Source: a virus
Taxonomy: Duplodnaviria > Heunggongvirae > Uroviricota > Caudoviricetes
Reading direction: 5' to 3' (one strand)
Virus record (IMG/VR): IMGVR_UViG_3300042870_001427
Span: 36,147-100,146 of that record
Length of the DNA stretch: 64,000 nt
Part shown: positions 9,547-13,689 of the stretch, in pieces
Layout: every line of letters begins with the position of its first letter
Position numbering within the stretch: the stretch's first letter is position 1
The notes under the pieces: model-generated
Seen by the model: only the letters and a program-made list of their open reading frames with translations
Told to the model about the DNA's origin: nothing
The model's database searches: none
Translations under genes and position numbers: made by a program

Positions 9547-9616
9547 AGAGTAGGTTCAGCAACACTAAAGACTACCAAAATGTTAATTTGTCTTAGTCGA
9601 CAAAACTACTCTGTTG
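9547..9616 (+). ncRNA. CAGCAA-stem RNA (Y-like family I) copy A, with an Asn-like ASL
   Basis: AGAGTAG/CTACTCT stem, GTTCAGCAA, inner CAAA-ATGTTAA-TTTG, 3' GTTG. Confidence 0.7.
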
Positions 9617-9620
9617 TATT

Positions 9621-9697
9621 GCCCTGGTGACGGAATAGGTATACGTACTGGTCTTAGAAACCAGGTTCTGAGAGTTCGAGTCTCTCCTAGGGCACCA
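9621..9697 (+). tRNA. tRNA-Leu(UAG), short variable arm
   Basis: CTGGT-CTTAGAA-ACCAG; 77 nt. Confidence 0.9.
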
Positions 9698-9747
9698 AAA
9701 CTCGCCTTGACTTATGGCGTATAATAGGAAAAGTAGTAAGTCAATCT

Positions 9748-9822
9748 GGGCTGTTAGTGATAATGGTAGCACGGGGGCTTTGCACGTCTCAGGTAAGAGT
9801 TCGATTCTCTTACGGTCCACCA
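9748..9822 (+). tRNA. tRNA-Ala(UGC)
   Basis: TTTGCAC loop; G3:U70. Confidence 0.92.
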
Positions 9823-9828
9823 GAATTT

Positions 9829-9903
9829 GGGTCCTTAGTAAAATGAATATTACACAACGCTACGAACGTTGAGGTGGGAGTTTGATTCTCTCAGGACCCT
9901 CCA
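9829..9903 (+). tRNA. tRNA-Arg(ACG)
   Basis: CAACG-CTACGAA-CGTTG. Confidence 0.9.
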
Positions 9904-9910
9904 ATTTTAT

Positions 9911-9984
9911 GCAGGTAAGCCCGAGGTGGGACGCCAGCCTTCCAAGCTGTGCTGAGTGGAGTTCGATTCTCCCTACCTGCTCCA
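9911..9984 (+). tRNA. tRNA-Gly(UCC)
   Basis: CCAGC-CTTCCAA-GCTGT; U73; CCA. Confidence 0.88.
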
Positions 9985-9990
9985 TGTTTT

Positions 9991-10054
9991 AGGATAGTTA
10001 CAGCAAACTTAAAGCTAAACTTATGGTTGTCTAGCGACAAAAGCTATCCTGTTG
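9991..10054 (+). ncRNA. CAGCAA-stem RNA copy B
   Basis: AGGATAG/CTATCCT stem, TTACAGCAA, inner TTGTC-TAGC-GACAA hairpin, 3' GTTG. Confidence 0.7.
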
Positions 10055-10060
10055 TTTTTT

Positions 10061-10136
10061 CTCCGTAAAGTGTTACCAGGTAGCATCCGTGATTTGGGGT
10101 CATGTGGTCTAGGTTCGAATCCTAGTACGGAGACCA
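10061..10136 (+). tRNA. tRNA-Pro(UGG)
   Basis: CGTGA-TTTGGGG-TCATG; C1:G72; CCA. Confidence 0.92.
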
Positions 10137-10140
10137 AGTT

Positions 10141-10263
10141 TTGTCATAGTGTAATGAGAATGCATGGGATCGCCACATAAGTCTATGCCGAAAGGCAACA
10201 CTAGTATTCTAGTGCAATAGCGGTGGAACAAGGTTCAGGTGTGGTAAAAACCCACAACGACAA
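10141..10263 (+). ncRNA. unclassified structured RNA
   Basis: TTGTC/GACAA closure; hairpins TGCC-GAAA-GGCA, CACTAG-TATT-CTAGTG, TGTGG-N7-CCACA. Confidence 0.45.
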
Positions 10264-10270
10264 TCAAGTT

Positions 10271-10465
10271 TTGTAAGTGTCAGCAAGAAAAAGACACTAA
10301 ATTGAGTAGATGGCCATCCAAAGATTTAGTAGAGCACAGGCGGCGTGATTCCGTGCAAAACTAAGAATCTGTGGTTGAGTATCCCAAGTGACGTACCGAG
10401 TCCCGCTCGAGCTTGTTACACGGGTGAATGGTTGCTATAACGATGGGGCAACTACTTACAAATTC
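10271..10465 (+). ncRNA. CAGCAA-stem RNA copy C (long cargo)
   Basis: TTGTAAGT/ACTTACAA stem then GTCAGCAA; multi-hairpin ~165 nt insert. Confidence 0.6.
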
Positions 10466-10470
10466 ATTGT

Positions 10471-10544
10471 TGGGGTATTGTGTAGTGGTAGCACACCGGT
10501 CTTTGAAGCCGTTAGTAGTAGTTCGATTCTACTTACCCCTGCCA
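10471..10544 (+). tRNA. tRNA-Gln(UUG)
   Basis: CTTTGAA loop; G73; CCA. Confidence 0.9.
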
Positions 10545-10567
10545 GTTTTTTAAAAGGAGAGCCTGTT

Positions 10568-11367: not shown

Positions 11368-11510
11368 TAGATAAACATACTTCAAAACCCCGGAACCGAC
11401 TGTAAAGTAGATGTACACGAAACACAGAAGGCAACGTAGTAGATACGGTAAGATCCGCAAGGGTGGGGTAGTCGCTTGTGAAAGCCAAGGCGAAGTATGT
11501 TTTTCTATGG
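11365..11510 (+). ncRNA. post-CCA long-stem element, family II copy 3
   Basis: CCATAGATAAACATACTTC/GAAGTATGTTTTTCTATGG (one mismatch). Confidence 0.6.
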
Positions 11511-11528
11511 TTAGTATTATCATATTAT

Positions 11529-11602
11529 ATCTCGCTGGTGTAATGGCAGCATAGCGGTCTCCAAAACCGTTGGTTGGGGTTCGAGTCCCTAGCGGGGTGC
11601 CA
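11529..11602 (+). tRNA. tRNA-Trp(CCA)
   Basis: GCGGT-CTCCAAA-ACCGT; G73. Confidence 0.92.
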
Positions 11603-11607
11603 AATAA

Positions 11608-11697
11608 GGAAGTGTGGCAGAGTCCGGTTTATTGCTACAGTCTTGAAAACTGTCGGTCCGAAAGGGTCCGTGAGTTCGAATCTCACCGCTTCCACCA
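11608..11697 (+). tRNA. tRNA-Ser(UGA)
   Basis: ACAGT-CTTGAAA-ACTGT; long variable arm. Confidence 0.93.
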
Positions 11698-11703
11698 TAT
11701 CAG

Positions 11704-11732
11704 TTGCAATTATTTCAGTAATATGTTATAAT
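11704..11732 (+). promoter_or_regulatory. sigma70 promoter for the Y-like RNA cluster and DUF2828 gene
   Basis: TTGCAA-N17-TATAAT with TG extension. Confidence 0.75.
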
Positions 11733-11751
11733 TGGAACATGTTAAGAATTT

Positions 11752-11900
11752 AGAGTAGTTACAGCAGCAAAAAAAACATGATTAGTCGCTAGCTGATACT
11801 TGCTGGAGCTTTATTGCTTTGAAGGTAGGTATCGTAAGGCAAGGCGACGAGGTGAGTTATATTTTTCACTGTAATAAAAAAATAAAAAGCTACTCTGCGG
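11752..11900 (+). ncRNA. CAGCAA-stem RNA copy E
   Basis: AGAGTAG/CTACTCT stem, TTACAGCAGCAA. Confidence 0.65.
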
Positions 11901-11905
11901 ATATT

Positions 11906-11972
11906 AGGTTAGGTTCAGCAAATAAAATGCATCAAACTTGTAATTTGAAAAAGCAAAAAAACTAACCTGTTG
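11906..11972 (+). ncRNA. CAGCAA-stem RNA copy F with a Thr(UGU) ASL
   Basis: AGGTTAG/CTAACCT; GTTCAGCAA; TCAAA-CTTGTAA-TTTGA. Confidence 0.75.
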
Positions 11973-11977
11973 ATTTT

Positions 11978-12088
11978 AGGATACTTACAGCAAATTACAA
12001 CTCACGTTGTGTAGGTGGTTCGATCCCATCATTTCGCGTTAGCGAGATTAGCTCATCTGGTAGAGCAAACGAAAAGAGTATCCTGTTG
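11978..12088 (+). ncRNA. CAGCAA-stem RNA copy G with a YrlA-topology tRNA mimic
   Basis: AGGATACT/AGTATCCT; T arm, then loop-closed acceptor, then D arm. Confidence 0.8.
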
Positions 12089-12093
12089 TTTTT

Positions 12094-12160
12094 AGATTGG
12101 GTTCTGCAATAAAAAAATTAATCACCAGAGGCCTCGGCCTCACCAAAAACCCCGAATCTG
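12094..12160 (+). ncRNA. CAGCAA-stem RNA copy H (variant TCTGCAA)
   Basis: AGATT-GGG/CCC-G-AATCT stem; inner GAGGC-CTCG-GCCTC. Confidence 0.55.
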
Positions 12161-12205
12161 GGTGGATTGCCTGATAGCACCAATGATGACCAATCTGTTG
12201 TTTTT

Positions 12206-12264
12206 AGGTTGATTTCAGCAATCAAAAAACTTTACTGGAAATAAAGCAAAAGTTCAACCTGTTG
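12206..12264 (+). ncRNA. CAGCAA-stem RNA copy I with a Ser(GGA) ASL
   Basis: AGGTTGA/TCAACCT; TTTCAGCAA; CTTTA-CTGGAAA-TAAAG. Confidence 0.75.
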
Positions 12265-12282
12265 ATAAAAAAGGAGTTTATA

Positions 12283-13689
12283 ATGTCAACATTTGTAGAA
12301 GCCGTTAAAAACCAAACTGCGCGCACAGAAAACGGCATGCGTGCTCGTAAGTCTACTGCAAATGCCTGTGTAGACTTGTTCTTCAAAATTGGTGCATCGC
12401 GTGGTAAGGATATTACCAAAGACTTTGTAGCAGCTTATGTCGAGGACAAAGACGTGGCGTTGCGTATTGCCCTGTGGGCTCGTGACGTGCGTGGTGGTTC
12501 TGGCGAACGTGAGTTGTTCCGTCAAATTCTTTCGTACTTGGAAAAGCACGATAAGGACGCAGCTGCAAAACTGTTGATGAAGACTCCTGAAATCGGTCGT
12601 TGGGATGACATCTTTGTTTTCTCCGACCAGGACTTGAAAGTTCAAGCTTTCAACTTGTTAGGTGACGCTCTGCGTAGCCGTAACGGGTTGGCTGCTAAAT
12701 GGACTCCTCGTCAAGGCCCTCTTGCTGCAGAAATTCGTAAGCACTTTGGTATGTCGCCAAAGTTCTATCGTAAGTCATTGGTTGAATTGACCAATGTTGT
12801 TGAGCAGCAAATGTGTGCTGGTAAGTGGGATGACATTAATCATTCTCATGTTCCTTCTCTTGCAGCTTCTCGCTACAAAAAAGCATTCACACGCCACGGC
12901 GCAAAGTTTGCTGAGTATGTGGAAAAGCTTAAGGCAGGAGATGCGGATGTTAAAGTTAACGCCGCTGCCGTGTACCCATACGATGTACTGAAAGGTATCA
13001 GCTCGTACTCTAACTCTTATGGTAAGACTGAATTGGATCACATTGTGGCTCAATGGGAAGCATTACCAAACTACGTTGGAGATGCAAGCATCCTACCTTT
13101 GGTAGACGTGTCTGGGTCTATGTCAACTCACATTGGTGGTGGTAAAACTACCGCAATGGACGTTGCAGTTTCTTTAGGTTTGTACTTGTCTGAGAAAAAC
13201 AAGGGTAAGTTCAAGGATACGTTCTTGACCTTCTCTTCAAAGCCAGAACTGTTACATCTTAAAGGTAACGTTGTACAAAAGATGCAACAAATGGTTAAGT
13301 CTAATTGGGATATGTCTACAGACTTGCACGCAGCATTGAATAAAATCCTTGCTACTGCTGTTCAAGGCAAAGTACCTCAAGAAGAATTGCCAGCAATGTT
13401 GCTGATTTTGTCAGACATGCAGTTTAACGCTTGTGTCAAGCATGATAATTCTGCGATTGAGATGATCAACCGTAAGTATGAAAGTGCTGGATACACCGCA
13501 CCTGCAATCGTGTTCTGGAACTTGAACGCCAAGGACAATGTTCCAGTTAAACATGACGCATCTGGTGTTGCGCTGGTCTCCGGATTCAGCCCAGCAGTTG
13601 TGAAATCGGTTCTGTCTTCTGACATGGATCAATTCACTCCAGAAGGTATCATGCTTAAGACCGTAATGGTCGACCGCTACGCTCTTTGA
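12283..13689 (+). CDS. DUF2828-family TROVE-like/vWA protein (Ro60-like architecture)
   Basis: RBS AAGGAG before ATG 12283; helical N-part (ARDVRGGSGERELFR, GRWDD, AAKWTPR); C-terminal MIDAS DVSGSM...SDMQF...FWNL. Confidence 0.8.
   Translation: MSTFVEAVKNQTARTENGMRARKSTANACVDLFFKIGASRGKDITKDFVAAYVEDKDVALRIALWARDVRGGSGERELFRQILSYLEKHDKDAAAKLLMKTPEIGRWDDIFVFSDQDLKVQAFNLLGDALRSRNGLAAKWTPRQGPLAAEIRKHFGMSPKFYRKSLVELTNVVEQQMCAGKWDDINHSHVPSLAASRYKKAFTRHGAKFAEYVEKLKAGDADVKVNAAAVYPYDVLKGISSYSNSYGKTELDHIVAQWEALPNYVGDASILPLVDVSGSMSTHIGGGKTTAMDVAVSLGLYLSEKNKGKFKDTFLTFSSKPELLHLKGNVVQKMQQMVKSNWDMSTDLHAALNKILATAVQGKVPQEELPAMLLILSDMQFNACVKHDNSAIEMINRKYESAGYTAPAIVFWNLNAKDNVPVKHDASGVALVSGFSPAVVKSVLSSDMDQFTPEGIMLKTVMVDRYAL

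Follow-up and report, generated by a model that had tools for sequence, protein, structure and literature searches.

Handle RNAs encoded beside a Ro60-fold DUF2828 protein in a T4-like phage, candidate partners in a Y-RNA-like particle

Results

Eight RNA elements of one design precede a DUF2828 gene

The window analyzed here is a 64,000-nt stretch of virus record IMGVR_UViG_3300042870_001427 (positions 36,147 to 100,146). The 164-kb genome around it (40.8% G+C) is that of a T4-like phage that encodes gp32, gp59, RNase H, and PhoH; its large tRNA island comprises 28 tRNAs according to ARAGORN, together with a permuted transfer-messenger RNA (tmRNA). The window contains a gene for a protein of the DUF2828 family, which has a Ro60 fold without being annotated as TROVE, and eight small RNA elements on the same strand as this gene and no more than 2.8 kb upstream of it (Table 1). 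In each element, a constant part, here called the handle, encloses a variable part, here called the cargo. The elements are numbered by position as e1 to e9, e3 being excluded from the family as described below. We consider it likely that they are RNA partners of the protein.

The same design was found in the eight elements by direct reading and by a structural scan. It starts with UUUU, followed by a 5' arm made of AG and five free bases, a 3-nt linker with U in the middle, and the motif C(A/U)GCAA. A cargo of 32–122 nt comes next, and then the exact complement of the arm, ending in CU, and a final GUUG. The resulting closing stem has 7–8 bp, of which the first pairs are A-U and G-C. Exceptions are the motif of e8 (CUGCAA), the motif of e5 (CAGCAG and then CAA), and the tail of e5 (GCGG instead of GUUG). 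A preliminary description of this DNA had reported a covarying terminal stem of 7–8 bp followed by a CAGCAA-like motif and a 3' GTTG. All three parts are borne out in the eight elements, including e7 and e8, whose arms had been omitted from that description.

When the eight elements were aligned with plain MAFFT, RNAalifold returned exactly the 8-bp closing stem, with four pairs changed on both sides and none broken. All cells were paired, compared to 27–56% when partners were slid, and the covariation score was reached by 0 of 500 shuffles. A covariance model built from the eight copies (R1) scored its members at 40–76 bits, and the next best match in the 164 kb at 12 bits.

The preliminary description counted a ninth copy, at position 10271, which did not stand up. 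It starts with UU and not AG, it has seven extra nucleotides ahead of GUUG, it gave no match to the covariance model, and its minimum free energy fold lacks the closing stem. In addition, its homologue in a related phage (L040:500-735) has a spacer of 9 nt, not 3. This RNA, conserved in that phage and without a match in Rfam, is regarded here as a separate RNA of larger size in which UCAGCAAG occurs by coincidence. It makes up about 200 nt of the interval 10137-10470, of which the preceding 130 nt have no explanation. A second candidate that was rejected is a helix between CAGCA and the 3' UGUUG, as drawn in the alignment to the YrlA model. It would cross the proven stem without a connecting loop, and the variants CCGCA and CUGCA retain a GUU(G/A) tail, so that no covariation supports it.

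The elements occupy two settings. Three of them, e1, e2, and e4, lie between tRNA genes 1–2.7 kb upstream of the DUF2828 gene and ahead of its promoter, with 5–7 nt from GUUG to the next tRNA in each case. The other five are arranged head to tail behind the best sigma-70 match of the region, forming a 540-nt leader from promoter to ribosome-binding site (RBS) that reaches 18 nt short of the ATG at 12283. The tandem of five behind this promoter, and a last copy about 20 nt from the start codon (18–22 nt from the end of e9), had been described correctly. Co-transcription with the DUF2828 gene had been proposed for the whole family; it applies to e5–e9 only and not to e1, e2, and e4. Of 56 related loci, 16 have a promoter-like site ahead of the first element scanned, and the promoter stretch itself had no match with blastn.

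Table 1. Features of the window that bear on the handle RNAs (positions are those of the window; arms are given as 5' arm/3' arm; bits without a model name are scores of the covariance model built from the eight elements)
Feature	Position (strand)	End of 3' arm	Description
e1 handle RNA	9547..9616 (+)	9612	Between tRNA-Ile and tRNA-Leu; AGAGUAG/CUACUCU, linker GUU, CAGCAA; 74.2 bits
e2 handle RNA	9991..10054 (+)	10050	Directly ahead of tRNA-Pro; AGGAUAG/CUAUCCU, linker UUA, CAGCAA; 68.3 bits
e3, doubtful member	10271..10472 (+)		Conserved RNA of about 200 nt; UCAGCAAG near 5' end; other closing-stem geometry
e4 handle RNA	11190..11285 (+)	11281	Between tRNA-Phe and tRNA-Leu
Sigma-70-type promoter	11704..11732 (+)		TTGCAA-17-TATAAT with extended -10 TG; ahead of e5–e9 and the open reading frame
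e5 handle RNA	11752..11900 (+)	11896	Structured 122-nt cargo, z -4.0; motif CAGCAGCAA, tail GCGG
e6 handle RNA	11906..11972 (+)	11968	75.9 bits; 5-bp stem and 7-nt loop CUUGUAA; RF01414 17.4 bits
e7 handle RNA	11978..12088 (+)	12084	Arm AGGATAC; permuted tRNA-like module of YrlA type; z -3.5
e8 handle RNA	12094..12200 (+)	12196	AGAUUGG/CCAAUCU, CUGCAA, cargo of 80 nt
e9, shortest handle RNA	12206..12264 (+)	12260	5-bp stem and loop CUGGAAA; RF01414 21.9 bits, best of the genome
Ro60-fold protein, 468 aa	12283..13689 (+)		PF11443 DUF2828 and PF25043 DUF7788/vWA, phrog_850; RBS AAGGAG 12271-12276, 6 nt ahead of ATG
Permuted two-piece tmRNA	20080-20552		Tag ANDEQFALAA; Rfam tmRNA_permuted 111.6 bits

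The cargo often resembles a tRNA fragment

The enclosed sequences are often mimics of tRNA fragments, with anticodon-like loops, T arms, and one YrlA-like module. The latter is found in e7, in which T-arm, acceptor-like, and D-arm hairpins follow each other as in a permuted tRNA. This element aligned end to end with the Rfam YrlA model (RF02553) at 31.2 bits, below the gathering threshold of 69 bits, and the other elements gave no match to this model at E ≤ 1. The cargo of e4 has a D-like hairpin, an anticodon-like arm (loop CUUCUAA), and a T arm (UUCGAAU), and its positions 11211-11271 scored 28 bits with the tRNA model. The YrlA tRNA-like domain is thus full in e7, partial in e4, and absent in e1, e2, e5, e6, e8, and e9. 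In e6 and e9, a 5-bp stem carries a 7-nt loop of the anticodon form CUNNNAA. A similar loop is found on a 4-bp stem in e1, the cargo of which is a long hairpin with the 7-nt loop AUGUUAA.

When 177 distinct cargos from the relatives were considered, 64 had a 5-bp stem with a 7-nt loop carrying U33 and R37, against 6.3 ± 2.3 in shuffles. The order of the elements is shuffled between related phages. Orthologous elements of related loci (L007-L086) keep stem and 7-nt loop while the three "anticodon" bases vary (UGU, UCU, GUU, UUU, and others), as if loop identity were diversified.

The DUF2828 protein has the fold of Ro60

The protein matched PF25043 at 163 bits and PF11443 at 93.8 bits, both above the curated cut-offs, and phrog_850 ("RNA-binding protein") with E 1e-141. 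Residues D275, S277, S279, T346, and D378 of the MIDAS (metal ion-dependent adhesion site) are present and invariant across the family (DxSxS, T, D), and the helical half has many near-invariant Arg and Lys residues. An AlphaFold2 model was built from 95 diverse homologues, with a predicted local distance difference test score of 91.7 and a predicted template modeling (TM) score of 0.91. With Foldseek against the Protein Data Bank (PDB), the top 12 matches of the model were all Ro60, Rsr, or phiLo Ro60 (E 1e-8 to 2e-6, TM 0.5–0.62, full length), followed by chains with a von Willebrand factor A (vWA) domain only (E 8e-3). VIA-align gave Z 21.3 for Xenopus Ro60 (411 residues, 4.1 Å), 20.3 for human Ro60, 17.3 for phiLo Ro60, and 12.9 for Rsr, and at most 9.8 for anything else, namely vWA-only chains. 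Among Swiss-Prot models, the best matches were Ro60 from five species and then the TROVE proteins telomerase p80 and TEP1. In agreement with the Ro-like protein of helical domain and MIDAS vWA first proposed for this gene, the predicted structure of the product of 12283-13689 is folded like Ro60 over its full length, with a HEAT-repeat and MIDAS vWA architecture.

At the level of sequence, the protein shows no similarity to TROVE. A profile search against the PDB had Ro60 as top match, with E 0.055 and in the vWA part only, and phmmer of the protein against the PDB gave no match. The family is large: it falls into 6,229 clusters when grouped at 50% identity, and 711 deposited phage genomes have a homologue, among them Felix O1, A511/P100, and CP30A-type Campylobacter phages. 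Proteins with DUF2828 and DUF7788 also occur in plants, green algae, and fungi.

Handle and DUF2828 gene occur together in other phages

Close relatives were analyzed as a set of 80 viral loci, whose proteins are 62–89% identical, with a strict structural scan. The handles found were on the strand of the gene in 217 cases and on the opposite one in 9, and 207 were upstream and 9 downstream of the gene. Distances were counted in the 60 loci whose upstream sequence exceeds 600 bp: 55 of them have an element that ends no more than 120 nt from the start codon, and 59 have one within 600 nt. Loci without a match are mostly cut off at the 5' end of the gene. Across the relatives there are 41 arm variants, in which the arm sequence drifts and the pairing is maintained.

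For more remote phages, a broader covariance model, built from 46 sequences (R2), was also run. The handle was present in six of six distant phage groups with a DUF2828 gene. Listeria phage A511 has three copies and Campylobacter phage CP30A one directly upstream of the gene, and Synechococcus phage BUCT-ZZ01 has two in this position and one more at 6.5 kb. In the Felix O1-like SP116, three handles lie in the tRNA array just after the DUF2828 gene. Mycobacteriophage Faith1 has three tandem handles (L005:7469-7729) directly downstream of a gene annotated as "Ro-like RNA binding protein"; they begin with the pairs U-A and G-C (UGGNNNC ... GNNNCCA-GU), and the middle copy contains a YrlA-type tRNA-like module. 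Over the whole records of A511, SP116, CP30A, and Faith1, R2 matched only at the gene-adjacent sites. In GAP32, R2 had four matches, all placed between tRNA genes and 200 kb away from the gene for the DUF2828 protein. Neither PF11443 nor R2 had a match in T4, T5, phiKZ, SPO1, and XacN1 (1.09 Mb; T5 and XacN1 are tRNA-rich).

In the reverse direction, IMG/VR was searched with an 18-nt handle pattern alone as seed. A complementary 3' arm was present in 97 of 103 pattern matches. Among 80 loci, a DUF2828 gene was found in 25, in every case on the strand of the handle, with 490 nt as the median distance. Where the gene was not nearby in a long contig (17 cases), nine contigs have it elsewhere, and the other gene-less contigs are fragments. 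One complete 52-kb phage genome (L144) has the pattern and no DUF2828 gene, and was set aside as a chance match because the pattern lacks the 3' arm. No complete genome with a true handle and without a DUF2828 gene was found in this search. The motif thus travels with DUF2828 in both directions, against the independent occurrence that the preliminary description had named as a refutation.

Other RNAs of the tRNA array

Two more structured RNAs were noticed in the tRNA array, at 10757-10849 and 11365-11510. They have 18-bp closing stems (CCAUAUAAAAACAC... and CCAUAGAUAAACAU...) that begin at the CCA end of the preceding tRNA (Lys and Leu, respectively), fold z-scores of -5.2 and -4.3, and no match in Rfam. 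Between tRNA-Gln and tRNA-Lys, a small open reading frame with a good RBS (10569-10700) codes for 43 amino acids rich in Lys and Arg. Two tRNA-like sequences, at 9904-9985 (tRNA-Sec model, 26 bits) and 14734-14804 (tRNA model, 46.9 bits), are not called by ARAGORN. No Rfam family reached its threshold on any handle element or on the other unannotated stretches.

Discussion

Small RNAs of one design accompany a protein with the fold of Ro60 in this genome, in its close relatives, and in distant phage groups. We think that the handle RNAs are probably small non-coding partners of the neighboring DUF2828 protein and that both constitute a Y-RNA-like ribonucleoprotein. The handle, consisting of the closing stem, three nucleotides, the single-stranded CAGCAA, and a 3' CUGUU tail, would most likely be the protein-binding site, because a conserved stem and a motif on the 5' strand play that part in Y RNAs. 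If Ro60 and Y RNA are taken as a guide, the protein would be the docking site of the handle, and the cargo would be left exposed to other factors. Elements e1, e2, and e4 could be freed by tRNA processing, through the action of RNase P at the following tRNA and trimming of the preceding one at its 3' end, and e5–e9 would be transcribed from their own promoter as leader of the mRNA of the protein. During infection, the target of the particle is probably RNA metabolism, of the host or of the phage, and it may have an anti-defense role, given that the Ppl defense is countered by a Felix O1-type homologue. The analysis establishes the RNA family with its covariation, its linkage to the gene, and the fold of the protein; physical binding, processing, the function of the particle, and the "display of modules" in the preliminary description are what we infer.

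The homologue in question is gp130 of Bas63 (Felixounavirus), a Ro60-like protein encoded directly upstream of tRNA genes, some of which its authors guess to be Y RNAs, with no RNA family or motif defined (10.1101/2024.10.10.617714). The DUF2828 gene of SP116 is likewise located directly upstream of tRNA genes, and taxonomy and gene position suggest that gp130 is a DUF2828 homologue.

Several observations weigh against a Y-RNA-like particle. The motif of the handle is unlike the GNCGAA/CGAA of known bacterial and phage partners of Ro60. Pfam TROVE (PF05731) had no match in the protein at E ≤ 1, and vWA_Ro60 matched with E 0.062 at best. No RtcB, PF09414 RNA ligase, or CCA-adding enzyme was found in the 164-kb genome, and therefore an RNA-repair setting is not encoded here, unlike in A511 and GAP32, where neighbors of this type are present. 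Expression of gp130 alone, from a plasmid or from T7, counters Ppl (10.1101/2024.10.10.617714), and therefore the phage RNAs are not needed for at least that activity. That the handle RNAs exist as discrete species bound by the DUF2828 protein is a prediction. Finally, a position next to the gene would be expected equally of a cis-regulatory leader.

According to this last alternative, the handles would be cis-acting sites and not separate RNAs: operators in the leader that would let the protein or a host factor control how the mRNA is translated or how stable it is, and punctuation for processing in the tRNA transcripts. RNA-binding proteins commonly regulate themselves through a mimic of their natural ligand, and both the 540-nt leader formed by e5–e9 and the 55 of 60 relatives with an element ending close to the start codon would fit such control. 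However, e1, e2, and e4 lie far upstream, before the promoter and among tRNAs, the elements follow the gene in SP116 and Faith1 and are 200 kb away from it in the tRNA cluster of GAP32, and an operator has no need of diverse tRNA-like cargos. As the whole explanation we consider cis-acting sites unlikely, although the leader copies may have a cis-regulatory role alongside their service as partners of the protein.

The tRNA-like cargos raise another possibility, namely that the RNAs act alone as decoys or baits, for instance against anticodon nucleases or tRNA-targeting defenses, with a handle that serves just for stability or processing and a DUF2828 gene that is a mere frequent neighbor in tRNA islands. 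The roughly 10-fold enrichment of anticodon-like loops in the cargo (CUUGUAA, CUUCUAA, CUGUUAA, CUUUUAA), the location of elements in tRNA arrays, and the activity of gp130 without phage RNAs would all agree with it. It is possible that the RNAs are pure decoys with no part for the protein, but this fits the distribution less well: the handles of CP30A, BUCT-ZZ01, and Faith1 are beside the gene, with no tRNA annotated nearby in the stretch examined, and no handle is found in the tRNA arrays of T5, T4, and XacN1, phages that do not have the gene. The conserved single-stranded 6-mer beside a stem of free sequence also resembles a protein-recognition site, and overall we regard decoys acting alone as quite improbable. 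There is very little room for elements that are repeated DNA without RNA function, such as REP/MITE-like palindromes, terminators, or recombination sites. Inverted repeats that are dispersed and flanked by T-rich sequence may look like these, but the strand bias among the relatives, the compensatory changes that maintain pairing over the 41 arm variants, and the conservation of an asymmetric single-stranded motif do not. Besides, the arms are 40–130 nt apart, unlike those of terminators, and no terminator-like site coincides with the elements.

That these phage proteins are Ro60-like is apparent from existing annotation, which reads "Ro-like RNA binding protein" in mycobacteriophages of cluster L and "RNA-binding protein" in PHROGs, and from two papers that guess at Y RNAs nearby. 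No Rfam family or searchable paper defining the handle RNA family, its motif, or its link to the Class I RNAs of Dictyostelium discussed below was found. Since the same pairing of RNA and protein recurs in many unrelated phages, the handle RNAs and the DUF2828 protein are probably an undescribed cousin of the Ro60/Y-RNA particle. In this regard, the handle would provide a simple signature for a second, much larger phage branch of Ro60/Y RNA, and a protein of hitherto no known function becomes a testable ribonucleoprotein with defined candidate RNA ligands. It also suggests why the tRNA islands of large phages hold many odd tRNA-like genes, and offers a connection to a measured anti-defense phenotype, that of Bas63 gp130 against Ppl.

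One such paper concerns Listeria phage CKA15. In that study, the A511-type protein was detected in purified virions, and the most transcribed non-coding region, reported to account for up to 67% of phage transcripts, was tentatively called Y RNA. We considered this region as evidence for expression of handle RNAs and rejected it: it maps to a ROOL RNA, and not to the handle RNAs, and gives no support either way. The match to ROOL RNA is located at A511 6507-7058 (L003), behind a strong promoter, with 87.5 bits and E 9e-18, just below threshold, and corresponds by coordinate offset to approximately 26,236-26,727 of CKA15.

Particles of Ro60 and Y RNA are known in animals, in about 5% of bacteria, and in a few phages, and it has been hard to identify the RNA partners through homology. 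Ro60 binds Y RNA on its outer surface and misfolded RNA in its cavity. In bacteria and mycobacteriophages, the genes for the Y RNAs YrlA and YrlB adjoin that for Ro60 and share its strand (Chen et al., 2014; PMC4201824), and Ro60 of the Thermus phage phiLo binds the Yrl1 and Yrl2 RNAs encoded upstream, and together with Yrl RNAs binds the PNPase of the host and slows it (PMC12135203). The system described here shares with them a protein predicted to combine a ring-type HEAT-repeat domain with a MIDAS vWA domain, small RNAs adjoining its gene on the same strand, a stem that joins the two ends of each RNA, with a conserved motif on its 5' side, and in some copies a tRNA-like cargo, as the T arm, acceptor-like hairpin, and D arm of e7. 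It differs in that the protein belongs to Pfam DUF2828/DUF7788 and not TROVE, is about 70 residues shorter, and has 12–16% identity to Ro60 in structure-based alignments. The phage CAGCAA is single-stranded and 3 nt past the stem, whereas Y RNAs have GNCGAA or CGAA in a bulge; the motif GNCGAAN0-1G near the 5' end (PMC4201824) is found in no element, all of which have C(A/U)GCA(A/G) instead, as was first proposed. There are also many copies per genome (eight here), and most cargos are single hairpins and not full tRNA mimics.

A different likeness, to the Class I RNAs of amoebae, emerged when e7 was scanned against Rfam. Class I RNAs are about 60 nt long, with a 5' (A)AG and a 6-bp closing stem of free sequence but kept pairing (Kjellin et al., 2021; PMC7919456). 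The stem is adjacent to the 11-nt motif CCUUACAGCAA, in which U3, C6, C9, A10, and A11 are near-invariant, and a variable middle leads to the end CUGU, whose C pairs with the 5' G (PMC7919456). They are transcribed from nuclear genes with a Dictyostelium upstream sequence element (DUSE) promoter about 60 nt upstream, are reported to be restricted to Dictyostelia, and have as known binder Rnp1A, a protein with an RNA recognition motif (PMC7919456). In the phage handle these parts recur in an identical order, and e7 reads CUUACAGCAA. Pairing is likewise kept over sequence, in a stem that in the phage has 8 bp with four covarying pairs and none broken. C6, C9, A10, and A11 are present in seven of eight elements (e5 has G at 11), and CUGU past the 3' arm in seven of eight. 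In contrast, the invariant U is at position 4 in the phage and 3 in Dictyostelium, and the setting is a phage genome with a sigma-70-type promoter or a tRNA-operon context and no DUSE promoter. With the amoeba-only Rfam model RF01414, the three best matches in the genome were e9, e6, and e8, and the best match in each of five other DUF2828 phage records was the handle RNA beside the gene, all at sub-threshold scores of 14–24 bits against 41.5. Together with the YrlA match of e7, these are the only Rfam similarities of the family, and no unrelated family claims the motif. No dictyostelid DUF2828 protein was among the matches listed in the homologue search, which did include plants, green algae, and fungi, and the Swiss-Prot models were just Ro60, TEP1, and p80.

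The likeness to Class I RNAs is a fact of sequence, and a shared partner or a shared origin is a possibility that it brings up. One may go further and suppose that stem, CAGCAA, and CUGU are what is recognized throughout a DUF2828 branch of the TROVE superfamily that extends from phages and bacteria to eukaryotes. The long-orphan Class I RNAs would then be Y-RNA-like partners of such a protein or an acquisition from phages or bacteria, and the phage arrays would serve to display mimics of tRNA fragments on a Ro-like ring, a programmable means of countering host defenses directed at tRNA or nucleic acids. We hold this wider scheme to be speculative and rather doubtful. Still, the phage handles are the first lead outside Dictyostelia on the origin and the partner of Class I RNAs. 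As to its place among known systems, the finding belongs with the Ro60/Y-RNA kind, as a relative and not a member of either YrlA or Class I.

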